From NCBI GenBank assembly GCA_964401865.1, contig CAYNZZ010000008.1, positions 1-32,000 of the forward strand: a DNA stretch of 32,000 nt, written 5' to 3'. Shown here in pieces: positions 1,122-31,843 of this stretch. This stretch comes from an uncultured Erysipelotrichaceae bacterium (GTDB lineage: Bacteria; Bacillota_I; Bacilli_A; Erysipelotrichales; Erysipelotrichaceae). The number at the start of each line of letters is the position of its first letter. The stretch's first letter is position 1. The position numbers and the translations under genes were made by a program. Below the pieces are notes generated by a model. The model saw only the letters and a program-made list of their open reading frames with translations, was not told the DNA's origin and made no database searches.

Positions 1122-1160
1122 AAAAAAACGGAAAACCTCGATGAATAAAGGCTTTCCGTT
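1122..1160 (-). terminator. Rho-independent terminator downstream of tRNA-Arg
   Basis: On the minus strand AACGGAAAGCC...GGTTTTCCGTT forms a stem followed by a T7 run (complement of the A-run at 1122-1128). Confidence 0.6.
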
Positions 1161-1169
1161 ACATTCAAA

Positions 1170-1244
1170 TGGCCTCCCTAGTAGGAATCGAACCTACAAT
1201 TAGTCCTTAGGAGGGACTCGTTATATCCATTTAACTATAGAGAG
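1170..1244 (-). tRNA. tRNA-Arg (anticodon CCU)
   Basis: The reverse complement folds as a cloverleaf. Acceptor CTCTCTA pairs with TAGGGAG. Anticodon stem AGTCC/GGACT carries loop CTCCTAA, giving CCT. The T-arm is GGTTCGATTCC and the 3' CCA is encoded. Confidence 0.9.
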
Positions 1245-1290
1245 ATAAACTATCAAATAGTATATCACATCTTAACTGTAATCTGCATAT

Positions 1291-1719
1291 CTAATAATAA
1301 AAGTAACGCACTTTGGCGTATTTATCTACAACACATTGAATCTCAATACTCGCTCGCATCGCATAAACAACATATTTTTTCATTCCTAAACCATTAACTT
1401 AAATCTTGCTCGCTATTTCACCATCGGAACGCAAACAAGAATCACAAATCTTTTCTAAGAATTCTTTTGACATGTCAATACCATTATCGATAATTCTAAT
1501 ATGAGCGCAAATGTATTGCTCGACTTTCTTAGATGGTTCTTAACGAAATATCGATTGAATTAAACTGTTTTCCAGTGTATATTTGCCACATTAGATAAAA
1601 CATTTAATTATACCGATGCCATCAATCCACACATTGTTGACACCAATTTCAAAAGGTTGTTTCTCTGTCTTGATTTGCGGTTGCATAATATTAACTATTC
1701 CATCAATAATTAAACAGGT
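1291..1719 (-). pseudogene. Fragment of a sensor histidine kinase (C-terminal HATPase_c region only) with three in-frame TAA stops
   Basis: One minus-strand frame reads ...KKVEQYICAHIRIIDNGIDMSKEFLEKICDSCLRSDGEIASKI*VNGLGMKKYVVYAMRASIEIQCVVDKYAKVRYFYY*. This matches the G1 box (DNGIGM-like), G2 box (GLG) and C-terminal beta strands of a kinase ATPase domain. In-frame TAA codons lie at 1591-1593, 1540-1542 and 1399-1401. No HisKA or sensor region is present. Confidence 0.55.
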
Positions 1720-1784
1720 TTAACTATTACCTCTTCTATACCAACCATAAAATAATATAATGAATTATATTACGATCAATATAT

Positions 1785-1812
1785 TTCTCAAAGCATGATA
1801 ATGCGTTAGAAT
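1785..1812 (+). promoter_or_regulatory. Candidate sigma-A-type promoter placed to give a leaderless or near-leaderless mRNA for the GTPase-NYN gene
   Basis: TTCTCA (1785-1790), a 16-nt spacer, then TAGAAT (1807-1812), followed by only 6 nt (ATTACT) before ATG 1819. No Shine-Dalgarno sequence is visible. Confidence 0.3.
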
Positions 1813-1818
1813 ATTACT

Positions 1819-4287
1819 ATGTCAAAACTAATAATCGGAGCATTGGCGCATGTCGACGCTGGTAAGACTACCTTATCAGAAGCTATCCTTTATAAAACTG
1901 GTGCTATCTTGAACATTGGCAGAGTAGATAAAAGAAATACATTTTTAGATTACAATATTCAAGAAAAAGAAAGGGGCATCACGATCTTCAATAAGGAAGC
2001 ACGCTTCACTTACAAAAATAAAGATTATATTTATGTTGATACCCCTGGGCATAATGAATTTAAGTCCGAGGCTTTTCGTGCTTATCATATTTTAGATTTA
2101 GCTCTTTTAATTGTCAACGGCTCAGAAAAAATACATAACGATGATATTTTAAAGTTTAACACTCTTATCGAATTAGGTATTCCGCTTATTATCTTTGTAA
2201 ACAAAGAAGATAACCTATATGGTTTAAAAGAAGACATTGTAAAAGATATAAGAGTAAATTTTAATGACAACTGCGTATCAGAAAGCGAACTATTTGAACA
2301 TGTCGCTTTGAGCAATGAAACTTTATTAGAAAGCTATCTTGAGAACAATACCATTAAAAAAGAAGCAATCATATCCAGTATTGCATCTAATCAAAGCATA
2401 CCTATCTTATTTGGCTCTGCCCTAAAAGATATCGGTATCGATAACCTATTAAACTTTATCGATAGTTATATCGAGGTAAAAAGTCCGCAAAATGTTTTTA
2501 GTGCTTATGTTTACGGCATTTCAAATGACGGCAACCAAAAACTATGTCATATGAAAATACTTGGTGGTACCCTCAATAATAAGACTAGTTTCAATGGTGA
2601 AAAAATTAATGAGATAAGATTATATAATGGCAAGAACTATATTGGTGTGCAATCTGTTACAGCGGGTGATTTGTGTGCAGTAACCGGTTTAAATAATATA
2701 TCTATCGGCACATATCTGCCAAGCTTTATAAATTCTATTAATGATGAGACATTGTCTTTGACTTATGAAATTAAATCAAACATTGATAATAATGAACTAT
2801 ATAGAAAAATCAATGTTTTAAACAGTGAACAACCCGAATTACATATCACTTTAAAAAGTAATCATCTCTTCATTGATTTAAAAGGCAATCTTCATAAGCA
2901 GATTATCTACAATCAAATTAAAGAAAGATTTAATGTTGAAATATCTTTCTTGGAACCAATCATCGTTTATAAAGAATCAATCAAGAAAGCATCTTTTGGG
3001 GTAGGTCATTTCGAACCGCTCAGACATTACGCTGAAGTAATAGTTGAATTAAGACCTAGTAACAAATTATCATTTAATACTTTAGTCAATAATTCTTTTA
3101 CCGGCCCAATGATTACATATTTAAATCAATCCCATCCCAAAGGGATTTTAACTAATAGTGAATTATGTAATATGTCCATTACTATCGTCGATATTAAAAC
3201 TCATCCAAAGCACACCGAGGGCGGTGATTTAATCGAAGCTTTAAGAAGAGCCATTAGGCACGCCTTACATTTTAATGATTGTTTTGTGCTTGAACCCTTT
3301 TATATCGTCAATATTGAAGCTAAAGATAATGTGAACACCATAATCAATGTTTTAAACAGTGAACAATATTCTTTTACTATCAATGAAAATACAATAACTT
3401 GTAAAATTAATCTTAAAAAATACAATCAGTTTATTTTAAATCTCCGAAGCAAATTAAAAGATGCTCTAAACTATGAAATCATTGAAAAAGTATATGATGA
3501 AGCGATAAATCAAGAAGATATCATCATTCAAAAAGGCTATGATTATAAGTCTGACTACACTAATCCAACCGGTTCAATTTTTACTTTCCATGGAGCAGGG
3601 CACTATATCGACGTCGAAGAAGTCATTGATAAGATGCATCTCAATTTAAACGATTACCTTAATTCAGAAACTACCATTACAAAATATATTCCTAGCAAAA
3701 TATCTGAGGATGAACTCAATAGAGTTTGGAACTCTTTATATAAGCCCAAAAAAAGAACTGCTTACAATCCTAAAAACATTGATGAAGAAAAGGAAAGAAT
3801 CGACATCAGCATTAAACCGCTTATCTATGTAATAGATGGATACAATTTAATGTATTCGCTGGAAGAGTTAAAAGATATAGTTAAGACAAATTTCATTATG
3901 GCACGTGAAAAAGTTATTGATTTTGTCTCTGATTTCAAGGGTTATGTAAATGCTAGAGTGATACTTGTCTTTGATGCTTATAAACAAAATTATTCAGCAC
4001 CGCAATTAGACGATAACGGCATAATTGAGATAGTATATACCAAAGCATTGCAAACTGCTGATACCTATATTGAAAATGTGGTAAAGAAATTAAATGACAA
4101 ATATAGAGTTATCACTGTAACTAGTGATTATCTTGAACAACTCGGAGTATTGTCTTCGGATTCAATTCGACTATCATGTAAAGAATTGATCAATCGTTAC
4201 AACAATATGAAAAGATCGACTGTTTCTAAAACTTTCACTAAAAATCAGCCTCTATTAGAACTTAAAAAACTTCTAGAAGAAGACTGA
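1819..4287 (+). CDS. Translational GTPase (TetM/TetO/EF-G-like) fused to a C-terminal YacP/Rae1-like NYN ribonuclease domain
   Basis: N-terminus MSKLIIGALAHVDAGKTTL carries G1. RGIT is G2, DTPGH is G3 and NKED is G4. The length and layout of residues 1 to about 640 match ribosome-protection/EF-G-type factors. Residues about 666-795 (nt about 3814-4210) carry IDGYN, VILVFDAY, QTADTYIE and VTSDYLEQ, which align with B. subtilis YacP/Rae1 (VDGYN, VIVVFDA, ETADERIE, ATSDYTEQ). It is a single uninterrupted ORF. Confidence 0.85.
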   Translation: MSKLIIGALAHVDAGKTTLSEAILYKTGAILNIGRVDKRNTFLDYNIQEKERGITIFNKEARFTYKNKDYIYVDTPGHNEFKSEAFRAYHILDLALLIVNGSEKIHNDDILKFNTLIELGIPLIIFVNKEDNLYGLKEDIVKDIRVNFNDNCVSESELFEHVALSNETLLESYLENNTIKKEAIISSIASNQSIPILFGSALKDIGIDNLLNFIDSYIEVKSPQNVFSAYVYGISNDGNQKLCHMKILGGTLNNKTSFNGEKINEIRLYNGKNYIGVQSVTAGDLCAVTGLNNISIGTYLPSFINSINDETLSLTYEIKSNIDNNELYRKINVLNSEQPELHITLKSNHLFIDLKGNLHKQIIYNQIKERFNVEISFLEPIIVYKESIKKASFGVGHFEPLRHYAEVIVELRPSNKLSFNTLVNNSFTGPMITYLNQSHPKGILTNSELCNMSITIVDIKTHPKHTEGGDLIEALRRAIRHALHFNDCFVLEPFYIVNIEAKDNVNTIINVLNSEQYSFTINENTITCKINLKKYNQFILNLRSKLKDALNYEIIEKVYDEAINQEDIIIQKGYDYKSDYTNPTGSIFTFHGAGHYIDVEEVIDKMHLNLNDYLNSETTITKYIPSKISEDELNRVWNSLYKPKKRTAYNPKNIDEEKERIDISIKPLIYVIDGYNLMYSLEELKDIVKTNFIMAREKVIDFVSDFKGYVNARVILVFDAYKQNYSAPQLDDNGIIEIVYTKALQTADTYIENVVKKLNDKYRVITVTSDYLEQLGVLSSDSIRLSCKELINRYNNMKRSTVSKTFTKNQPLLELKKLLEED

Positions 4288-4296
4288 CATTTATAA

Positions 4297-4335
4297 ATAA
4301 AACTTGGTTCATTATGTTATGAACCAAGTTTTTTA
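4297..4335. terminator. Bidirectional rho-independent terminator
   Basis: An 11-bp perfect stem AACTTGGTTCA (4301-4311) / TGAACCAAGTT (4320-4330) is flanked by A-rich and T-rich runs between convergent genes. Confidence 0.75.
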
Positions 4336-4357
4336 TCTTCTCTATATTTTTTAAGTA

Positions 4358-5152
4358 TCATGACAATAAGATTCTATCATTTGCCATTTCAAAGCCAGTT
4401 TCTTTTTCAAATATTTGGAGCAAGTCGCTGACTGTCAGTTTAGCTTTTTCTTCGCCTGATACATCCAAGATAATCTTGCCATCAGACATCATAATCAAAC
4501 GATTGCCATACTTAATTGCATCTTTCATATTGTGTGTGATCATTAATGTAGTAAGATTATCTTTTTTAACTAATGTTTCAGTTAAAGTCAATACACGATT
4601 AGCAGTTTTAGGATCTAAAGCTGCTGTATGTTCATCGAGTAATAATAATTCCGGTCTTACCAAAGTTGCCATAAGTAATGTCAAAGCCTGTCTTTGCCCG
4701 CCTGACAATAAACCAACCTTTGAGCCTAAGCGACTTTCAAGTCCAAGATTTAATGATTTGATCAATTCGACATATTTCTTGCGTTCCTGCTCTTTCAAAC
4801 CTTTTTTTAAGGTTCTCGCTTTACCTCTGCGACTAGCAATAGAAAAGTTTTCTTCAATTGATAAATCAGCGCATGTGCCAACCATTGGATCTTGGAATAC
4901 TCTGCCAATTTTAGAAGCTCGTTTATATTCTTTCTGTTTTGATACATCTTCGCCATTGATAATTACTTTTCCTGTGTCCAAAGAATAAGTACCAGAAATA
5001 AGATTTAACAATGTTGATTTACCAGCTCCATTACCACCGATAACTGTTATAAAGTCGCCATCATTGATAGTTATAGAAAGATCTTCAATCGCTCTTTTTT
5101 CATTAGCTGTTCCTGCATTGAAAGTCTTTGATATATTTTTAATCTCTAACAT
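4358..5152 (-). CDS. ABC transporter ATP-binding protein (partner of ABC_sub_bind/COG2984-type importers)
   Basis: Walker A GGNGAGKST, signature LSGGQRQ and Walker B LLLLDEHTAALD. It overlaps the permease stop by 7 nt. Confidence 0.9.
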   Translation of the reverse strand: MLEIKNISKTFNAGTANEKRAIEDLSITINDGDFITVIGGNGAGKSTLLNLISGTYSLDTGKVIINGEDVSKQKEYKRASKIGRVFQDPMVGTCADLSIEENFSIASRRGKARTLKKGLKEQERKKYVELIKSLNLGLESRLGSKVGLLSGGQRQALTLLMATLVRPELLLLDEHTAALDPKTANRVLTLTETLVKKDNLTTLMITHNMKDAIKYGNRLIMMSDGKIILDVSGEEKAKLTVSDLLQIFEKETGFEMANDRILLS

Positions 5153-6036
5153 TTTTTGGCTCCTTTCTTTTTAAAGTTGGCATTAGATAAATATAGCGCT
5201 AAAGCAACGATTATTGCGGTAAATAATTTCATATCATTAGCCGATATAAAGCTACTATTAATCACTAAAGCGACAATTAAACGATAGATAATAGATCCAA
5301 CCAAAATGCCACACAAGCTTAAAATTAAATTTTTCTTCTTAAATATTACTTCACCGATAATGACCGAAGCTAAACCAATAACAATGGCACCTATGCCCTG
5401 ACCGACATCGGCATATCCGTTGTATTGACAAACAAGCGATCCGCTAAGAGCAATTAAGGCATTAGCTAACATTAGCCCGGCGATCATTGTTACATCAGAA
5501 TTGATACCATTAGCTCTAATCATCTTGTCATTATTGCCGGTCGCAACAATGGCGTATCCAAATTCAGTATTGAAAAACCATACTAACAAAACAATGACAA
5601 TCGCACACACAACTACGCCAAGTATAATCGCCGCATCTCTGTCCTTACTGAAACCAAGAAGATTTTTAATGCTAGTCAAAATAGTTTCTTGTTGATTAAG
5701 CGGAATATTGGCTTTACCCATAATTCTAAGATTAATTGAATATAAGCCTGTCATCGATAAGATACCTGATAGTAAGCTTGGAATACGCATCTTAGTATGC
5801 AATAAACCTGTTACCATACCAGCTAAAGAGCCAGAAATTACCGCCATTAAAATAGCGATTAAAGGATGAATACCATTTACAATAGCTGTTGCACTGACAG
5901 CAGCTCCTAAAGTAAACGATCCTTCACTGGTCAAATCAGAAATGTTTAGTATTCGATATGTAATATGAATGCCTATGGCTAATATTGCCCATAGCAAGCC
6001 TTGTGATATTGCAGAAATAATAATTTGAGAAGACAT
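5146..6036 (-). CDS. ABC transporter permease (branched-chain/unknown-substrate type, COG4120-like)
   Basis: A 296-aa polytopic membrane protein lying between the binding-protein and ATPase genes in the same orientation. Confidence 0.85.
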   Translation of the reverse strand: MSSQIIISAISQGLLWAILAIGIHITYRILNISDLTSEGSFTLGAAVSATAIVNGIHPLIAILMAVISGSLAGMVTGLLHTKMRIPSLLSGILSMTGLYSINLRIMGKANIPLNQQETILTSIKNLLGFSKDRDAAIILGVVVCAIVIVLLVWFFNTEFGYAIVATGNNDKMIRANGINSDVTMIAGLMLANALIALSGSLVCQYNGYADVGQGIGAIVIGLASVIIGEVIFKKKNLILSLCGILVGSIIYRLIVALVINSSFISANDMKLFTAIIVALALYLSNANFKKKGAKKC

Positions 6037-6051
6037 AATTTACCTTTCTAT

Positions 6052-7038
6052 CTAGTCGTTTGCGACATCAATACCTCTTTGGATAATTGATTCCGGAAGT
6101 GTTAAACCGATTTTTTCAGCTGTTTTTGAATTGTAATATACTTGAATATCTGATTGGAATTCGATTTGAAAATCATCAATTGTCTTTTCACCATTCAAGA
6201 TTTGAACTGCCATTTCACCAGTTTGGTAACCGATCTTGTAGTAGTCAACGCCAAGAGAAATCAAACCGCCATTTTTAACCGAATTGCTTTCACCTGTAAG
6301 GACTGGTAAATGATTTTCGGTAGCGAAAATATCAACACTCGCCATAGCAGAAGCGATGTTGTTATCAGTTGGAACATAGATAGCATCAACCTTGCCGACA
6401 AAACTTTGAAGTGTATCATCAATCATCGTCTTATCAGAAACAGTTTGAATAACTGGAGTGATGCCATTTTTGTTGCATTCTTCTTCCATCTGTTTAGCTT
6501 GAATTTCTGAGTTAGGTTCTGACGAAGTATAGATGATACCCAATGATTTTACAGTTGGAACAGCTTCTAATAATAAGCTTAACTGTTCACTCATCGGACA
6601 ACCATCACTTACACCAGCGATCAGTCCGCCAGGTTTTTCATTTGTCTCAGCAAGCCCTGCTTCAACAAAATCAGTAACAGCAGTAGCCAAAATAGGAGTA
6701 TGATCATTGACATTCTGCAATGCCTGAGCAGGTGTTGTTGCGATAGCCAAGATTAAATCCTGATTACCAGCAATTAAACTATCAGCCATTGTTGTTAAGT
6801 TAGAAGAGTCGCCTTCTGGGTTTTGATATTCGATAACCAAATTTTCACCTTCGATATATCCGCCATCTTTTAAAGCATCAACAAATCCTTGTCTAGATAA
6901 ATCAAGTGCATCATGAGTTAATAATTGAAGAATACCGACATGTTTAACTGCATCGGTGTTGTTGCTTGGTTGAGGATTGTTTGAACTACATGCCACAAGT
7001 AATCCTAAACTCAAAATAAGTACAATTAGTTTTTTCAT
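6052..7038 (-). CDS. ABC transporter substrate-binding lipoprotein (ABC_sub_bind family), paralog A
   Basis: Signal peptide plus lipobox LLVAC. Family-typical segments include GILQLLTHDALD, ILAIATTPAQA, IYTSSEPNS and IYVPTDNN. RBS AGGGAGG. It directly follows a T-box leader. Confidence 0.85.
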   Translation of the reverse strand: MKKLIVLILSLGLLVACSSNNPQPSNNTDAVKHVGILQLLTHDALDLSRQGFVDALKDGGYIEGENLVIEYQNPEGDSSNLTTMADSLIAGNQDLILAIATTPAQALQNVNDHTPILATAVTDFVEAGLAETNEKPGGLIAGVSDGCPMSEQLSLLLEAVPTVKSLGIIYTSSEPNSEIQAKQMEEECNKNGITPVIQTVSDKTMIDDTLQSFVGKVDAIYVPTDNNIASAMASVDIFATENHLPVLTGESNSVKNGGLISLGVDYYKIGYQTGEMAVQILNGEKTIDDFQIEFQSDIQVYYNSKTAEKIGLTLPESIIQRGIDVAND

Positions 7039-7059
7039 AAAGTCCTCCCTATCAAGAAA

Positions 7060-7321
7060 TAAAAAACTCGTCCCACAAAAGGACGAGTGTTATCGCGTTA
7101 CCACCTTTTTTCACTTATCTATTACTAGACAAGTCTCTGTAAGCCACCATCATGGCCCAACACTTTAACGGGTGTTAATCGTGACACTCTACTTAATTCA
7201 AGCATCCCACTAGCTGATGTATTCATCCCGACTCACTAACTGTTCTCACCAACCACAGTCTCGCTTCAAGTTGAGGCTCAAAGATTACTCTTTCAGTTCA
7301 CGGCGTTTTTTTATTCCTTAT
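7060..7321 (-). promoter_or_regulatory. T-box riboswitch leader, specifier read as UAC (Tyr)
   Basis: The minus strand shows these Stem I elements: AGAGUA, AG bulge AGCGA, and distal loop GGUUGGUGAGAA closed by GACUGU/ACAGUU. The specifier-loop string is GAA-UAC-A (UAC at 7221-7219). The T-box motif AAGGUGGUAACGCG is at 7106-7094. The terminator is ACUCGUCC-UUUUGU-GGGACGAGU plus a U-run (7088-7060). Confidence 0.8.
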
Positions 7322-7327
7322 GAGGTA

Positions 7328-7356
7328 AGTATAGTTAATGGTTTTTTGTTTGTCAA
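7328..7356 (-). promoter_or_regulatory. Sigma-A-type promoter for the second T-box unit
   Basis: TTGACA (7356-7351), a 17-nt spacer, then TATACT (7333-7328). It lies immediately downstream of the paralog B stop codon. Confidence 0.6.
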
Positions 7357-7363
7357 CTATTTT

Positions 7364-8332
7364 TTATTGCGATAAATCTTTTCCTTTTGTCTTAATGTTT
7401 TCAGGTACAGTAATGCCAATTTGTGAAGCTGTCTTACTGTTATAGTAGATATCAACATTATCACTATCCATGAAATATATTGGTAAATCTTCAATATTCA
7501 CTTCTTTGCTTAGAATTTGAATAGCCTGAAGACCGGTTTGATAACCCAAGTTATAGTAATTTACACCGATTGATGCCAAAGCACCATCTCTTACACCAGC
7601 GTCCCATCCAGTAAAGACTGGTATATTATTTTCTTTAGCTACAATATCAACGCTCGCCATTGATGAAGCTAAAGGATTGTCAGTTGGAATGTATAATGCA
7701 TCGATTTCATTTTGGAAACTCAGCATTGCATCATTGACCATCGTCAAATCAGATATTGTCTTTTCCACAACACTCCAACCTCTTTTTTCACATTCTTTTT
7801 TCATCGCTTCAGCTTGAATAATTGAATTTTCTTCACTAGATGTATATAACAAACCAACAGTTTTTACATCAGGAACAAATTCAGCGATTAAATCCATCTG
7901 TAAAGACATCTCAACGAAATCACTTGCGCCTGAAATATTACCACCAGGTTTTTCATTAGATTTGATAAGCCCAACATCGACATAGTCGGTTATTGCGGAA
8001 CCTAGAATAGCTATCTCACTGGTTTCTTGCCCAAGTGCTTGAGCAGAATTAGTACCTATTGCCAAAATCAAATCACAATCCTGATTAACCAAATATTGCG
8101 CCATGGTCGGCAATACCGAATTATCATTATTTGGATTTTGATATTCGTAAATGACATCGGTATATCCGTTATCGTTTAAGGCATCTTTAAATCCTTTATA
8201 AACATCAGATAAAGCTTCATGTTCCATAAGTTGCAAGACGCCAATCTTTACCTTTTCATCTTTGCTTACACTATTAGACGAACACGCTGTCATAAGCAAT
8301 AATACAATTAGAATCCAAATGCTCTTTTTCAT
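7364..8332 (-). CDS. ABC transporter substrate-binding lipoprotein (ABC_sub_bind family), paralog B
   Basis: Start moved to ATG 8332 (MKKSIWILIVLLLMTACSS, lipobox) with AGGAGG 7 nt upstream. The longer track ORF reads through the RBS. It is clearly homologous to paralog A along its full length. Confidence 0.85.
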   Translation of the reverse strand: MKKSIWILIVLLLMTACSSNSVSKDEKVKIGVLQLMEHEALSDVYKGFKDALNDNGYTDVIYEYQNPNNDNSVLPTMAQYLVNQDCDLILAIGTNSAQALGQETSEIAILGSAITDYVDVGLIKSNEKPGGNISGASDFVEMSLQMDLIAEFVPDVKTVGLLYTSSEENSIIQAEAMKKECEKRGWSVVEKTISDLTMVNDAMLSFQNEIDALYIPTDNPLASSMASVDIVAKENNIPVFTGWDAGVRDGALASIGVNYYNLGYQTGLQAIQILSKEVNIEDLPIYFMDSDNVDIYYNSKTASQIGITVPENIKTKGKDLSQ

Positions 8333-8348
8333 AAATCCTCCTAATAAA

Positions 8349-8600
8349 TAAAAAGTCACCCCTACAAAGGGCGACTATAATCGCGGTACCACCTTTATTC
8401 TCTAACACCAGTCAGACTTTAGCATCGACCATCATCGACGCAACACTTTAACGTATGTCAAACGTGGTATCCTACTTTGAATTCAAATACCCAACTCCGT
8501 GAGGAATTCGATAAAAGTCACGCGGCTATTTCCACCAACCATAGCCTCTCTATTACGATCGTTTTTATTTACTACTTCACTTCAACGATTTTTGGTTATA
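8349..8600 (-). promoter_or_regulatory. T-box riboswitch leader, specifier read as UUC (Phe)
   Basis: The minus strand shows AGUAGUA, AG bulge AGAGA and GGCUAU/AUAGCC closing distal loop GGUUGGUGGAA. The specifier-loop string is GAA-UUC-C (UUC at 8506-8504). The T-box motif AAGGUGGUACCGCG is at 8395-8382. The terminator is AGUCGCCCU-UUGUA-GGGGUGACU plus a U-run. It is collinear with the 7060-7321 leader, including a shared GUUAAAGUGUUG element. Confidence 0.8.
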
Positions 8601-14895: not shown

Positions 14896-16524
14896 ATGAA
14901 AAGTTACATTAAGTATATTATCCTTGTATTTACCGCTATTCTGCTATATTACTTCTTGCTTCCGGCTATTAATATTCATGATATTAAACTTTGGTTATGT
15001 ATCATTTTGCTGGCAATAGAATTTTGTATCCTTGATGTTTCAACTGAACAAAAAATTATTAAAGTTAAAAATAAGAGTTTCGCTGTTCCTAGCATTGTAA
15101 AAAGTAAGACCAGCATAAAAGTAATGATTCTTGTATTGGCCGTTAGCTTCATTTATATCTTTGCAACCGCCATTATTTATTCGCCAATCTTTATGTCTGG
15201 CTCTTATGCCAATCGTATCAATATTGAAGAAGTATCTTTTGATGAAATACCTACTTATTCATTTAACACTACGGCAATCATTGATAGAGATAGTGCTTCA
15301 AAACTAGGTAATAAAGTAATGGGTGAAATGTTGGATTTAATATCACAATTCACCGCATCCGATGAATATTCTCAAATTTCATATCAGGAAGGCACATATC
15401 GTGTCACACCTTTAAAATATGACGGCTTTATTAAATATCTCAAAAACAGAAGCGAAGGCGTGCCTGGATATATCATTGTAAACACTACTACTGGTGAAAC
15501 CAGTCTAAAACGCCTTGACAAAAAACTCAGGTATGTTCCAAGCGCCTACTTCAACGAAGATTTGATGCGCAAGCTACGTTTCTCGTATCCTTTTGAAATA
15601 TTCGGCTCGCCAACATTTGAAATCGATGAAGAAGGAAATCCATACTATATCTGTACAACTTATACATATAAAGGCGTTAGTTCCTTAAAAAGAGTAACTG
15701 GAGCTGTACTATTTAATCCGGTTGATGGTTCTTCAACAAAATATGATATTGAGAATATCCCAACCTGGGTAGATAGAATTTTCCCAGAAGATTTAGTTAA
15801 TGAGGAATTAAATGATTTCGGAAGCTATTCCAATGGTTTCTTTAATTCCTTCATCGGACAAGAAGGCGTTATGCAAACAAGTGAAGGCTATAATTACATT
15901 TCTAAGAATGGCGATATTTGGTTGTATACTGGCATCACAAGTGTTCTTTCTGATGATTCAAATATAGGTTTTGCACTTGTCAATCTAAGAACTCATCAAG
16001 CGCAATTAATCAATACATCTGGAGCTGATGAATATTCAGTCATGGCTAGCGCCGAAGGTGAAGTATTAAATTATGGATATACCGCAACCTTCCCAGTCTT
16101 GGTAAATATCGACAACAAGCCGATATATCTTTTATCTTTGAAAGATAGTGCTGGACTTGTAAAAATGTATGCAATGGTTGATGCTCAAGACTATCAGCAA
16201 GTCTATACAATATCTGCCGACAAAGATACCAAGACGGCTATTGAGGATTTAATCAAAAAGATCAGTAAAGATCCGACTGCTATTTATCAAAATCTGTCAG
16301 AAGCCATTGTTACTGTAGATAGATGCGAAAACATTAGTCAAAACGGCAATACAACTATATTCATACTCGATAGTAATGATATGATTTATGAAATACCATA
16401 CGATTCAAGTTATAAGAAATATATCTTATTCTTGAATAGTGGCGATACTTTAGAATTGTTATACGAAGAAAGCAATGGTATAAGAATAGTAAAACAGATC
16501 ATTTCTAAAAATGGCATAAAATAA
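14896..16524 (+). CDS. Membrane-anchored protein of unknown function (542 aa)
   Basis: Three N-terminal transmembrane helices are followed by a roughly 430-aa soluble domain. ATG 14896 directly abuts the SPFH stop TAG (14893-14895), which suggests translational coupling. Confidence 0.7.
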   Translation: MKSYIKYIILVFTAILLYYFLLPAINIHDIKLWLCIILLAIEFCILDVSTEQKIIKVKNKSFAVPSIVKSKTSIKVMILVLAVSFIYIFATAIIYSPIFMSGSYANRINIEEVSFDEIPTYSFNTTAIIDRDSASKLGNKVMGEMLDLISQFTASDEYSQISYQEGTYRVTPLKYDGFIKYLKNRSEGVPGYIIVNTTTGETSLKRLDKKLRYVPSAYFNEDLMRKLRFSYPFEIFGSPTFEIDEEGNPYYICTTYTYKGVSSLKRVTGAVLFNPVDGSSTKYDIENIPTWVDRIFPEDLVNEELNDFGSYSNGFFNSFIGQEGVMQTSEGYNYISKNGDIWLYTGITSVLSDDSNIGFALVNLRTHQAQLINTSGADEYSVMASAEGEVLNYGYTATFPVLVNIDNKPIYLLSLKDSAGLVKMYAMVDAQDYQQVYTISADKDTKTAIEDLIKKISKDPTAIYQNLSEAIVTVDRCENISQNGNTTIFILDSNDMIYEIPYDSSYKKYILFLNSGDTLELLYEESNGIRIVKQIISKNGIK

Positions 16525-17817: not shown

Positions 17818-18819
17818 TTAATACCAGTTTTCCATCGAATTTGCTGCTTTATATAAAGCGTAAATCAAATCATCAACTAAAATATCAAACTCAGAGATAT
17901 ATAAATCATCTTGAATGAGTTCAATAACTTCATCAACTTTTTTATTTAGAAGCGATTCTTCAAATTTTTCTAATTTAATGGCGTAATCAGATAAAACAGT
18001 CTTGTCATTTTCATCATTACTTTTTTCTAGCTTACTTCTAGTATCAAAACGACTGGTTAACACTTTGCCTTTATTATCAATTTCAGCATCTATTTCTACC
18101 TGATCACTAATTAGAGAAGTTACCTCATCATTTTCTGAAGCGGTCACAATGCCAAAATTAGAAATGACTTTAATACTGCCATTGCTTTCTTCACTAGCGT
18201 CAGCTAATTCATATCTAGTAACCGTGCCGACACCTACACCACGAACCGAAGTAATTCCTTTAGTGTTCAAAAATGCGCTCTCTATACTGTTATGACAATT
18301 ATCCAATTCAATGTTAGGGTAATCCTCGGGATTGACGCTATCAAAATATTTGGCTACCTCATCTTGATTTTTACCTTTAATCGCCTCTTGCAAGGTTAAG
18401 ACCTCAGTAAGATACTCATCGTCATATTCTCTTAAACTCAACCATTCAGCATCGCCTTTTTTAGTTCCGATTTTGCCTTCTTCACTAAACCAAATTCTAT
18501 TCTCTATCCTGTCAATATAACTGTAAACAATACGATTATCATTATTCAATAACACGACCGCAAACGAACTATTGACCAACAACTCTCCATCCTGCAATTT
18601 TCCTTCTTCGACACTTTTGGCGTCAAATGGTGAAACATAGGTCGAAATGCCAAAGCCAATCTGCATTGTATGTTCAGGTTCAATAGTTTCTGTCATATCA
18701 GTATTAGAAGGCACATTATTGTTTTCTTTGTTGTTATTTAAACTGTTTATATAAAATAAACTTATTACTACTAATATAAGAGCTGTTGCGAAGATAATTA
18801 TTTTATTATTCTTTTTCAA
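17818..18819 (-). CDS. Secreted/membrane-anchored protein of unknown function with an apparent internal domain duplication
   Basis: Start moved to TTG 18819, which has GGAGG 7 nt upstream. There is an N-terminal anchor. Two similar segments are visible: GFGISTYV…SFAVVLLNNDNRIVYSYIDRIE and GVGVGTVT…NFGIVTASENDEVTSLISDQVE. Confidence 0.55.
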   Translation of the reverse strand: MKKNNKIIIFATALILVVISLFYINSLNNNKENNNVPSNTDMTETIEPEHTMQIGFGISTYVSPFDAKSVEEGKLQDGELLVNSSFAVVLLNNDNRIVYSYIDRIENRIWFSEEGKIGTKKGDAEWLSLREYDDEYLTEVLTLQEAIKGKNQDEVAKYFDSVNPEDYPNIELDNCHNSIESAFLNTKGITSVRGVGVGTVTRYELADASEESNGSIKVISNFGIVTASENDEVTSLISDQVEIDAEIDNKGKVLTSRFDTRSKLEKSNDENDKTVLSDYAIKLEKFEESLLNKKVDEVIELIQDDLYISEFDILVDDLIYALYKAANSMENWY

Positions 18820-18881
18820 AATATCTCCTCCTAACAATCTAAATTATAACTTATCGATTAAATAATCACAAATCAAGCACT

Positions 18882-22909: not shown

Positions 22910-23560
22910 CTAATAGCCACTTGCATACTCGAAGATGTCCTTGTTGTTAAAAGTTACAGTTTCGATTTCGACGAAAGTAACATAATCATCTCGTTTCTCA
23001 TCGCTAACTTTTTCAACTTTCTCAATATTTCCTTTAAATAACGAATAGTTATTATAATTACCAGATAAGACTAAGCCATTACCATAAACACCAAAATAAT
23101 CTCCAGCAACATTTTTATCAATAACGAACTCAATCACGCTGCCATCGCTATAATGGGAACATCCGCCATCAGTATCAACATCGGCCTTCTCTTCGATTTT
23201 TACCAAAGGAAGCACTATCCCACTATCTAAAGTAAAATAATACCGATCACCAATTACCCCATAGTATGAACCCAATGCCACACCGATAAAACCATCTTCA
23301 TCAACTAAGAAACCAGTTTCTTCGTCAAGAATCATATTATCTCTTATGTATTTATATTGTGTTGAATTTCGATCGGTAATAGCTCGATAATCCATATATG
23401 TCTTGGTTTTATTTACCGAGCAGACACCAACTTCTTCAGCGACATATTCCTTTTGATAATCTTGCAAACTGTCAATAGAAAAGTCTATTTTCACATCTTT
23501 AAAAGCCGACAAAGTTACAATAAATAACATTGCCAACAGTAATATAACTATCTTTTTCAT
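22910..23560 (-). CDS. Secreted protein of unknown function
   Basis: Signal peptide MKKIVILLLAMLFIVTLSAF from ATG 23560. No clear SD is present, and TTG 23578 is an alternative start. The conserved-looking YMDYRAITDRNSTQYKY…DGSVIEFVID core is seen in uncharacterised Firmicute exoproteins. Confidence 0.55.
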   Translation of the reverse strand: MKKIVILLLAMLFIVTLSAFKDVKIDFSIDSLQDYQKEYVAEEVGVCSVNKTKTYMDYRAITDRNSTQYKYIRDNMILDEETGFLVDEDGFIGVALGSYYGVIGDRYYFTLDSGIVLPLVKIEEKADVDTDGGCSHYSDGSVIEFVIDKNVAGDYFGVYGNGLVLSGNYNNYSLFKGNIEKVEKVSDEKRDDYVTFVEIETVTFNNKDIFEYASGY

Positions 23561-23646
23561 ACTTGAACATTTTAACAAATTTCAATTCTTATTGCAATAA
23601 AATCATACTAGTATTATTTCCTAGGCAACTTTTTAAGTGAAAAAAA

Positions 23647-30342: not shown

Positions 30343-30419
<77 letters not shown>

Positions 30420-30445
30420 TTTGAATTATTAAGTTGAATATATAT

Positions 30446-30521
30446 GGGGCATTAGCTCAGCTGGGAGAGCGCCTGCTTTGCACGCAGGAGGTCAGCGGTT
30501 CGATCCCGCTATGCTCCACCA
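30446..30521 (+). tRNA. tRNA-Ala (anticodon UGC)
   Basis: GGGGCATTAGCTCAGCTGGGAGAGCGCCTGCTTTGCACGCAGGAGGTCAGCGGTTCGATCCCGCTATGCTCCACCA. It has the G3:U70 identity pair, anticodon loop TTTGCAC, and encoded CCA. Confidence 0.95.
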
Positions 30522-30820: not shown

Positions 30821-31843
30821 TTATTTTACATCAATATCAATTATATTTGCATCCGAAACATAGTTTGGATTGCTTAATTGCGTGTCTTTCAAAGACTCTT
30901 TTAATCGATCGCAACAAGGTTTAAATGTAGCATAAGTAATCGCTCCACCTGCAACTCCGCCAACAACTGGAATAGCTTTCTTAAAGAATCCTGCAAATAT
31001 TTCTTTTGTCATTCTTACGCCAAACCACTTAGCAGTACTTTTAACTATTGGATAAATTGTGCCCTTGGTTAAAGCTTGTTTCATCAGCTGTTTTGAAACA
31101 CCATTGCCCAATGCTTTAGCGACCGATTTAATTGCGTTGCTTGCTCCTGCAACACCATACATAGCCCCCAAACATAATGTTAGTATATTTAATGTTTCGG
31201 TATCGAATTGCGATTTATTTTCTATTACATCAATTTCTGGGAAACCATATAAATACAATATTTTTTGTGCAGCTCTTAACATATATCCATAGTATTGAAC
31301 TATATCAGCAGGAATTGTCGCTGCCATAGCAACACCGCCTGGAGCACCTAATGCAGCAGATATGCCTGAAACACAGTTTCTTTCAAATTGAATGACACTA
31401 TCCGCATATTTTTCGATTTTATCAGGCGTAATACCAGCATAAGCAGGATTATGAGCAATTATTATATCGATTACATCTTGAGGATAATCCTTCTTAAATT
31501 CACTTCTTAAAAATTCATACCTCGATATACGAATGCCTGGCGTTCTCAAACCAAGGATGATAATATCCTCAATATCAACCGTGCCATCACCATTGACATC
31601 TAAAGTGTCTCTTACTTTTTCAACTGACTTGTCTGTTACTTTTTTGATTGTAGGAATTGCCTTTTCATTAGCGAAGTCTTTCGTATCTCGGATCAGCTCA
31701 GACGTTTTTTCAAATGTATTAAATGCTGTTTCTTTGGCTATTGGAATCGCTTTTTCTTCGGTAAATTTCTTAGCGTCTCCAAGTGCTTTTTTAGATAATT
31801 TACTCAAATTATTTTTTAACTCTTTAAAATCACTATTTTTCAT
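30821..31843 (-). CDS. EcsC-family protein with an N-terminal extension containing an EF-hand/dockerin-type calcium-binding loop
   Basis: The C-terminal ~230 aa resemble the EcsC family (…ERNCVSGISAALGAPGGVAMAATIPADIVQYYGYMLRAAQKILYLYGFPE…). The N-terminus has the repeated motif EKAIPxxK (two copies) and the loop DVNGDGTVDIED (nt 31600-31565). Confidence 0.7.
   Translation of the reverse strand: MKNSDFKELKNNLSKLSKKALGDAKKFTEEKAIPIAKETAFNTFEKTSELIRDTKDFANEKAIPTIKKVTDKSVEKVRDTLDVNGDGTVDIEDIIILGLRTPGIRISRYEFLRSEFKKDYPQDVIDIIIAHNPAYAGITPDKIEKYADSVIQFERNCVSGISAALGAPGGVAMAATIPADIVQYYGYMLRAAQKILYLYGFPEIDVIENKSQFDTETLNILTLCLGAMYGVAGASNAIKSVAKALGNGVSKQLMKQALTKGTIYPIVKSTAKWFGVRMTKEIFAGFFKKAIPVVGGVAGGAITYATFKPCCDRLKESLKDTQLSNPNYVSDANIIDIDVK

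Follow-up and report, generated by a model that had tools for sequence, protein, structure and literature searches.

A translational GTPase fused to a Rae1-type NYN nuclease in Erysipelotrichaceae and other Bacillota: a candidate ribosome-docked mRNA endonuclease

Proteins that combine a Tet-like translational GTPase with a YacP-like NYN domain have been noted twice. Atkinson 2015 assigned such proteins to the Tet subfamily, suggesting that the RNase domain contributes to tetracycline resistance (PMC4342817), and Matelska et al. 2017 listed “TetM-NYN_YacP fusion proteins” in some Clostridia and called their role unclear (PMC5499597). Here we analyse a gene of the same architecture in a 32,000-nucleotide stretch of DNA from an uncultured Erysipelotrichaceae bacterium (assembly GCA_964401865.1, contig CAYNZZ010000008.1, positions 1 to 32,000), referred to as a whole as the window. 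A first-pass annotation of the window, made from its letters alone, had assigned the gene to a TetM/EF-G-family GTPase joined in one open reading frame (ORF) to a YacP/Rae1 NYN domain, a domain assignment that our analysis upholds, and had taken no such mechanism to be known. The latter was too strong given the reports of 2015 (PMC4342817) and 2017 (PMC5499597): only the function is uncharacterised. Indeed, a full-text literature search turned up no functional study of an NYN/Rae1 domain joined to an EF-G- or TetM-type GTPase.

The nuclease half has a well-studied counterpart. Rae1 (YacP) of Bacillus subtilis is a translation-dependent mRNA endonuclease (PMC10351889, PMC12407103). NYN/YacP proteins were first predicted to act in rRNA and tRNA maturation, based on the cysS-mrnC-rlmB-yacP operon (PMC5499597, PMC4342817). 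Cutting by Rae1 in the A site, which the first-pass annotation treated as established, was a docking model of 2017-18 (summarised in PMC10351889), and the view has since been revised. Tetreault et al. 2026 tied Rae1 to collided ribosomes and transfer-messenger RNA (tmRNA), describing a Rae1-dependent pathway from collision to tmRNA in which Rae1 makes tmRNA substrates on collided ribosomes (PMC13622287). There is no structure of ribosome-bound Rae1 (PMC13622287), and how Rae1 finds ribosomes is unknown. SmrB of E. coli and Cue2 of yeast provide an analogy, as nucleases recruited to stalled or collided ribosomes that cut mRNA for rescue (PMC12407103, PMC13622287); for SMR-domain proteins, collision sensing involves contact with uS3 of the collided ribosome (PMC13622287). 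Their nuclease fold, Smr, is unrelated to NYN, and a translational GTPase, the proposed recruiting module of the fusion, is absent from those systems.

The architecture itself was therefore already known, and the window gene is a new, divergent Erysipelotrichaceae member of a described but uncharacterised fusion family. At 33-37% identity to the Lachnospiraceae type, its protein falls within a divergent Erysipelotrichaceae clade whose members are compact, at 811-840 residues. What we add is the size and taxonomic range of the family, its co-conserved active sites, a domain IV tip that is neither Tet nor EF-G, a C-terminal mini-domain, the tether with its helix, the NYN-less orthologues, and negative evidence on mobility, defence and synteny.

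We first consider whether the fusion is real. The uninterrupted 822-codon frame read in the first pass proved sound: an identical 822-residue protein is called on 14 independently assembled contigs, and other assemblies reproduce positions 1128-8287 of the window at 98.8-100% identity. A stop or frameshift separating two genes near positions 3700-3810 had been considered; the 14 contigs all carry a single ORF there. Searching one-genome-per-species contigs with two family-specific peptide patterns returned at least 600 matches, in Bacillota, and an exhaustive profile search recovered 551 representatives at 50% identity with E ≤ 1e-30. Locus-level comparisons, here and below, use the best 80 of the at least 600 species-level matches. 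At 80/80 of these loci the body, mini-domain and NYN domain lie in one ORF, which, together with the 14 identical contigs, rules out an assembly artefact or a split gene. A survey of fused against split forms, proposed in the first pass, finds the fusion widespread. With one ORF at all 80 loci, at least 600 species matches and 551 representatives, we conclude that the fusion is real and ancient.

The range is far wider than the “ten species of clostridiales” or “some Clostridia” given earlier (PMC4342817, PMC5499597). The best 80 loci come from Lachnospiraceae, Erysipelotrichaceae (Holdemanella, Catenibacterium, Solobacterium, Faecalitalea) and Oscillospiraceae, as well as Desulfitobacterium, Desulfosporosinus, Anaerovorax, Fusibacter and others, and the family as a whole extends over Erysipelotrichales, Desulfitobacteriales, Peptostreptococcales-like taxa, Oscillospirales and Monoglobales. 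Annotated fused members are also present in Monoglobus pectinilyticus and Agathobacter rectalis. The sequences carrying them, NZ_OY725736.1 (517 kb) and NZ_CP143948.1 (251 kb), respectively, are filed as plasmids; they have secA, methionyl aminopeptidase and cotJ genes aboard and no plasmid typing, and are probably chromosome pieces.

The GTPase is intact, as the first pass had read it. Pfam GTP_EFTU matches residues 5-219 (E = 1.2e-39, 136 bits, cut-off 26.5), and the nucleotide-binding and hydrolysis motifs G1-G5 are all preserved, including the catalytic His78 of DTPGH: G1 AHVDAGKT at 10-17, G2 RGIT at 52-55, G3 DTPGH at 74-78 and G4 NKED at 128-131, with GSAL also present. Across about 313 sequences, conservation of K16, D74, G77, H78, K129 and D131 is 100%. 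Behind the G domain, the suggested length of a five-domain ribosome-binding factor is confirmed by Pfam, by the NCBIfam EF-G model and by structure. An AlphaFold2 model computed with 65 family members (mean predicted local distance difference test score, pLDDT, 83.7) shows a confident EF-G-like five-domain body over residues 1-561, and its best Foldseek matches, over the full length, are ribosome-bound EF-G structures (E ~1e-42, ~690 columns); EF-G2 (8dmf, 9k0z) and mitochondrial EF-G2/RRF complexes are also among the matches. Among the Pfam matches expected in the first pass, GTP_EFTU, EFG_IV and NYN_YacP were found; EFG_C, sought in the 822-residue protein, gave no match, although relatives do match it.

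Which member of the EF2 superfamily the body resembles depends on the region compared. The best single-sequence match in the PDB is TetM (140.7 bits over residues 4-413). From the G domain to domain III the body aligns best to this protein and, like it, largely lacks the long G' insertion of EF-G: about 50 residues of S. aureus EF-G remain unmatched between G4 and G5 in a profile alignment, and the G domain of about 219 residues corresponds to an S. aureus EF-G stretch ending at about residue 280. The best NCBIfam model is likewise tet_protect. However, its score of 234.1 bits compares with a cut-off of 775, the TetM/W/O/S model reaches 142.6 bits against 1100 and Tet(M) 123.9 against 1420. 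The EF-G equivalog models are also far from their cut-offs (TIGR00484, 153 bits vs 659; PRK12740.1-5, 209.7 vs 583). The family profile as a whole scores EF-G (368 bits) and TetO/TetM (359 bits) about equally, but over domains IV-V plus the mini-domain it favours EF-G twofold (96-100 bits vs 48-52 for TetM/TetO).

The tip of domain IV is the most conserved part of the whole protein. We assessed conservation in 352 distinct family sequences, counting residues where the region is present. Two family-specific motifs, GVGHFEPLRHYAEV at 394-407 and KHTEGGD at 464-470, form the tip; conservation is 100% at H397, E399, P400, Y404 and D470 and at least 98.9% at H403, H465 and T466. Compared with EF-G, HFEPLRHY stands in place of GGRGQYG and KHTEGGD in place of DVDSSE, while H462 (94% conserved) occupies, in the profile alignment, the position of the EF-G tip-loop histidine. 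In the cryo-electron microscopy literature, the loop-3 tip of TetM, Y506-P509, touches the tetracycline site. When a Tn916-type Tet(M) is aligned to the family profile with hmmalign, Y506-Y507-S508-P509 falls on T461-H462-P463-K464, and K464, H465 and T466 are each more than 97% conserved in the fusion family. The short C-terminal extension of TetM, with which that protein ends at about 640 residues, does not align to the family mini-domain, and the window protein runs on for a further 260 residues.

These results bear on whether the protein is a tetracycline ribosomal protection protein of the TetM/TetO type whose RNase domain aids resistance. Beyond the TetM and tet_protect matches, this idea draws on NCBI naming several relatives “TetM/TetW/TetO/TetS family” and on the Tet subfamily placement of Atkinson 2015 (PMC4342817). 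We nevertheless consider it very improbable: every Tet model score is far below its cut-off, domains IV-V lean to EF-G, the loop-3 residues of TetM are replaced and its C-terminal extension has no counterpart. In addition, the gene is chromosomal and solitary across Bacillota orders and lies off mobile elements, unlike plasmid-borne TetM matches (761/896 plasmids with a strong TetM match, E ≤ 1e-100, are conjugative or mobilizable). The “TetM-like” label of the first pass therefore overstates kinship to resistance proteins. Kinship to EF-G has limits of its own, since the five-domain fold, the domain IV-V profile and the histidine position are shared, but most of G' is missing, the equivalog scores are low and the invariant tips, mini-domain, tether and nuclease are additions. 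Taken together, the family's own tip loops, the sub-cut-off Tet and EF-G scores and the largely missing G' indicate, at the level of sequence, a paralogue that stands apart within the EF2 superfamily and has invariant decoding-centre loops of its own, neither a ribosomal protection protein nor EF-G.

Downstream of domain V, the protein carries a conserved 45-residue mini-domain that no Pfam or NCBIfam model matched. In the AlphaFold model it consists of a helix matching the EF-G C-terminal helix, a beta-hairpin and a short helix. Conservation reaches 100% at Y574, D579 and F588 and 98-99.7% at S586, G592 and H607. A long linker follows. From the end of the mini-domain to the start of the NYN domain it measures at least 52 residues, with a median of 71 and a maximum of 185 (n=310); by hidden Markov model boundaries, that of the window protein measures 53. 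Within this segment, most of it predicted to be disordered, lies a conserved helix, which the AlphaFold model predicts at 630-641 and whose motif was found in at least 224/310 sequences. No NCBIfam model matched the NYN part, or the mini-domain plus linker.

The identity of the C-terminal domain is clear, and the reading of a YacP/Rae1 NYN fused in the same frame holds. Pfam NYN_YacP (PF05991) matches residues 671-805 (E = 4.3e-32, 111.8 bits, cut-off 24.6), with motifs IDGYN at 672-676, VFDAY at 717-721, QTADTYIE at 745-752 and VTSDYLEQ at 767-774; the AlphaFold model places the domain at 668-800, followed by a short tail. The domain aligns to residues 3-135 of B. subtilis Rae1/YacP (PDB 5MQ8/5MQ9, E = 2e-18), such that D673 corresponds to D7 of Rae1, D719 to D53, D748 to D81 and D770 to D104. 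Thus, the acidic residues on which the first pass relied survive proper alignment, and all four are 100% conserved in about 310 sequences. They include the equivalents of D7 and D81, whose joint replacement, D7N D81N, gives a catalytically dead Rae1 (PMC10351889). Our impression is that standalone Rae1 perhaps also extends C-terminally beyond the NYN core, as its 181-residue PDB chain aligns only through residue 135. The setting differs from that of Rae1: the NYN domain forms the C-terminal 150 residues of an 822-residue GTPase, behind a linker of at least 52 residues, and the solitary fusion gene does not share the operon context of Rae1 (PMC5499597; the S. aureus gene adjoins rlmB). With the GTPase and nuclease residues co-conserved over so wide a phylogenetic span, both enzymatic centres are under strict selection.

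Not all relatives carry the nuclease. Among the best 150 representatives, NYN is present in 110, and about 18-21 are genuine NYN-less proteins of 630-665 residues that keep the mini-domain and end a few residues past it; the remainder of the 39 representatives without NYN are fragments or apparent frameshift artefacts. We looked in the same 150 for an effector other than NYN on the same body and found none; the long NYN-less tails of three of them (P0137, P0147, P0169), candidates for other effector domains, look like frameshift artefacts. A split NYN gene beside the NYN-less orthologues was not found in 6 loci. The NYN-less bodies share 45-59% identity with fused bodies, more than the window protein shares with the Lachnospiraceae type (33-37%), and therefore belong to one family with them. 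That they exist suggests that the body works as a ribosome factor by itself, with NYN as an added effector.

Such orthologues raise the further possibility that the body is mainly an EF-G/EF-G2-like alternative translocase, or a recycling or splitting factor, and NYN an accessory RNA-binding or rarely used module. The NYN-less proteins are bona fide genes, domains IV-V are EF-G-like and the Foldseek matches include EF-G2 and EF-G2/RRF complexes. Still, complete conservation of the four NYN aspartates in about 310 fused sequences is not expected of a non-catalytic module, and the body falls far below the EF-G equivalog cut-offs with G' largely missing. We regard this account as quite unlikely.

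One NYN-less orthologue resides on a Ligilactobacillus salivarius megaplasmid (L001; NZ_CP090412.1, 5986-7920). This 644-residue protein, 34% identical to the window protein over query residues 1-607, bears the annotation of a TetM-family resistance protein and occurs on dozens of L. salivarius megaplasmids; its divergent neighbours are rpsN (ribosomal protein S14) and “putative metal homeostasis protein” genes. On a metagenomic contig (L093, 710-3316), a 640-residue NYN-less orthologue is followed 4 nucleotides on by sfsA, encoding a PD-(D/E)xK-type nuclease. This neighbour is absent at the other five NYN-less loci examined, and the fused gene of Monoglobus has an sfsA gene about 5 kb upstream; the proximity of sfsA to family genes is probably a coincidence.

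How might the parts work together? The reading we favour, with a probability of about one half, is that the fusion docks on the ribosome and, cycling with GTP, carries a tethered mRNA endonuclease that serves mRNA quality control on stalled or collided ribosomes. As EF-G-fold factors dock at the ribosomal factor-binding site, the EF-G-like body would be expected to do the same, contacting the GTPase centre and the A-site/decoding region. In its GTP form it would bind ribosomes on which the factor site remains accessible for an abnormally long time, either stalled with an empty A site or, as the trailing partner of a collision, stuck before translocation. The tethered NYN domain could then reach mRNA at the edge of the bound ribosome and cut it, the likely site being the side of mRNA entry, corresponding in a collided pair to the gap behind the stalled ribosome. 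GTP hydrolysis would release the factor, and the truncated mRNA would pass its ribosomes to trans-translation (tmRNA). Overall, the protein would be a Rae1-type quality-control nuclease with a built-in ribosome-targeting module, not an antibiotic-resistance protein.

Two lines of evidence shape this proposal. The characterised NYN_YacP enzyme cuts translated mRNA and makes tmRNA substrates, which points to mRNA on stalled or collided ribosomes as the likeliest target. Action limited to translated mRNA, feeding ribosomes to tmRNA (PMC10351889, PMC12407103, PMC13622287), also fits a nuclease attached to a ribosome-binding factor. The second line is the linker. The first-pass annotation had envisaged delivery of the nuclease into the A site alongside domain IV; a tether of at least 52 residues, for the most part predicted to be disordered and with a median of 71 (n=310), argues against this and for tethered reach, and as modelled it would fit access to mRNA at the ribosome edge.

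A more specific version makes the body a collision sensor. The ribosome has its factor-binding site and its mRNA entry channel on the same side, and the trailing ribosome in bacterial disomes is in a rotated pre-translocation state, a natural substrate of EF-G. A factor there could consequently cut where Rae1 cuts, behind the stalled ribosome. The body would sense failed translocation by binding the trailing ribosome and being unable to move it, and a prolonged, GTP-timed residence would let NYN cut the entry-side mRNA. We consider this version speculative and, as it stands, unlikely. If true, one would expect standalone Rae1 and the NYN-less orthologues to act together in trans at the factor-binding site, and the fusion would be a “Rosetta stone” for Rae1-type targeting as well as the first collision sensor based on a translational GTPase.

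The nuclease might instead be directed at rRNA or tRNA, either in a maturation or quality-control step with a GTPase “test drive” or in stress-induced inactivation of the ribosome through a cut near the decoding centre. On the docked body, domain IV would sit at the decoding centre by 16S rRNA, and its tip is invariant; the long tether could reach the region of the 16S 3' end. In eukaryotes, eIF5B/Fun12 with Nob1 offers a parallel, a GTPase “test drive” that places a PIN-superfamily nuclease on the small subunit, though only by analogy. One relative lies between genes for an rsmH-like 16S methyltransferase and a Glu/Gln-tRNA synthetase; however, the 80 loci revealed no conserved linkage to rRNA- or tRNA-processing genes. 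The original prediction for NYN/YacP was indeed rRNA/tRNA maturation (PMC5499597, PMC4342817), but Rae1, the sole characterised NYN_YacP member, cleaves mRNA in a way that depends on translation (PMC10351889, PMC12407103). An rRNA or tRNA target is, in our estimate, improbable.

Several considerations weigh against the tethered mRNA nuclease as we have drawn it. We infer what the enzyme cuts (mRNA, rRNA or tRNA), which ribosomal state it recognises and what GTP does. The invariant domain IV tip is unlike that of EF-G and TetM, and the body may recognise some other ribosomal state. The NYN-less orthologues imply a function of the body that is independent of the nuclease. Finally, the fusion may replace standalone Rae1 or be a specialised paralogue of it.

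The genomic setting is that of a solitary, chromosomal, housekeeping-type gene. In the window, the fusion gene is flanked by a tRNA-Arg(CCU) gene on one side and, on the other, by a convergent ABC (ATP-binding cassette) transporter operon under T-box control, in surroundings of housekeeping genes such as groEL, miaA and trxB-like genes. To search for a conserved operon partner, we clustered 536 flanking ORFs from the 80 loci, which ruled one out: there were no conserved neighbours, generic ABC ATPases alone recurring (17 loci, on either side and strand), with GreA, identified from sequence, downstream at 5/80 loci and a few other sporadic families. Linkage to mobile elements was likewise absent in the 80 loci.

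We also weighed a toxin-like or anti-phage abortive-infection device acting on reprogrammed ribosomes. Fusions of a nuclease with an NTPase are common in defence systems, and a few matches come from collections labelled viral: two “Bacteriophage sp.” records in a phage collection and 5 of 2.9 million viral contigs (IMG/VR). Three of these 5 matches lie within about 2.5 kb of the end of a contig of 20-42 kb, and the other two contigs are shorter than 9 kb. A phage origin was rejected for MT835514.1 (“UNVERIFIED: Bacteriophage sp.”; L103), a mislabelled bacterial chromosomal fragment carrying genes for feoB, a ZIP transporter, rsmH, the GTPase-NYN protein, a Glu/Gln-tRNA synthetase, a small RelA/SpoT-type synthetase, glpK and a cardiolipin-synthase-like protein. 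PADLOC models gave no match to the fusion, no defence-island or toxin-antitoxin neighbour is conserved, and the distribution is as broad as that of a housekeeping gene. The accessory, defence or phage setting entertained in the first pass is thus unsupported, and a defence role is most improbable.

Expression signals point to an autonomous gene. No Shine-Dalgarno (SD)-like run was found in the 20 nucleotides before the ATG, as had been noticed in the first pass, and a -10-like hexamer, TAGAAT, ends 6 nucleotides before it. In a survey of the 65 family loci with an assignable start, an SD was present at 43/65, and 10/65, mostly Erysipelotrichales, combined a missing SD with a -10-like hexamer ending 4-12 nucleotides before the start. 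These ten are the window gene and, its closest relatives included, L004, L006, L019, L024, L027, L040, L055, L077 and L082. The fusion gene is accordingly a candidate leaderless transcript, which would better account for the missing SD. Having its own promoter-like site and terminator, and a convergent gene downstream, it is predicted to be monocistronic. The upstream region, 1245-1818, had been described as a decayed, accessory-looking patch: it indeed lacks any ORF of at least 50 residues, and any Pfam match, but it is 98.8-100% conserved in other assemblies and nothing marks it as accessory. Its minus strand was tried as a decayed histidine-kinase gene (three in-frame stops, an ATPase-box look) and found no Pfam support.

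The family matters for two reasons. With Rae1 now viewed as a main path by which stalling and collisions lead to trans-translation in Gram-positive bacteria (PMC13622287), the fusion links a Rae1-type nuclease covalently to a module with a well-understood ribosomal docking site. It offers a stable complex for cryo-electron microscopy and a direct hypothesis on where Rae1-type nucleases act, and since 2025-26 it has become directly relevant to how they recognise stalled or collided ribosomes. Second, dominant human-gut Firmicutes commonly carry the family (Lachnospiraceae including Agathobacter rectalis, Erysipelotrichaceae, Oscillospiraceae and Monoglobus), and the label [quoted passage not shown] is attached to many of its members. 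Our analysis does not support this label, which could inflate resistome counts in gut metagenomes. The coordinates of the gene, its domains and its flanking signals are given in Table 1.

Table 1. Features of the fusion gene and its immediate flanks, in window positions.
Feature	Residues	Position	Strand	Basis
Complete gene, GTPase-NYN fusion		1819..4287	+	ATG start, 822 codons plus stop, ORF uninterrupted
G domain	1-219	1819..2475	+	Pfam GTP_EFTU
Domains II and III	227-376	2497..2946	+	Weak Pfam EF-G_D2 and EFG_III; AlphaFold confident
Domain IV	384-483	2968..3267	+	Pfam EFG_IV, E = 1.3e-5
Domain V	488-561	3280..3501	+	NCBIfam EF-G model aligns to 563; model secondary structure fits
Conserved C-terminal mini-domain	563-607	3505..3639	+	pLDDT about 85-88
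Flexible linker	608-667	3640..3819	+	pLDDT <50 at 616-628 and 644-664
Conserved linker helix	about 630-646	3706-3756	+	SEDELNRVWNSLYKPKK; consensus EL..IF..TYGP.KR
NYN_YacP/Rae1-type endoribonuclease domain	668-805	3820..4233	+	Pfam, alignment to Rae1
Short C-terminal tail	terminal helix 813-821	4234..4284	+	AlphaFold model
Promoter-like site, TTCTCA-16 nt-TAGAAT		1785..1812	+	Consensus scan, 9/12 matches; pattern match only
Intrinsic-terminator-like hairpin		4299..4332	+	14 pairs plus T-run, directly after stop codon

Several other features of the window were recorded. The ORFs at 14896-16524 (+), 17818-18837 (-), 22910-23578 (-) and 30821-31843 (-), of 542, 339, 222 and 340 residues, had no Pfam match at E ≤ 0.001. 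A tRNA-Ile(GAU)-tRNA-Ala(UGC) pair, the usual combination of rRNA-operon spacers, lies at 30343-30521, and Rfam reported no rRNA in the window. The tRNA-Arg(CCU) gene occupies 1170-1244 (-), and a terminator-like hairpin follows closely downstream (1160-1127). In or beside this gene, at 1128, 1184 and 1206, three independent assemblies of the same organism have their end or start, which suggests a repeat or a strain-variable junction there.

In the ORF-free stretch between a 59-residue ORF (625-804, -) and the tRNA-Arg gene, positions 889-1009 hold four direct repeats of about 15 nucleotides with the core (T)CATTAGCAA(A), starting at 896, 929, 952 and 985 (spacing 33/23/33) and bracketed by AAC(G/A)CGATACCT at 889 and 998. 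The array looks like an operator or an iteron. On the other side of the fusion gene, T-box leaders at 7076-7310 (-) and 8364-8594 (-), scoring 120 and 130 bits, each precede one of two paralogous genes for ABC substrate-binding proteins (PF04392; 6052-7038 and 7364-8359), which are followed by permease and ATPase genes (4358-6036).

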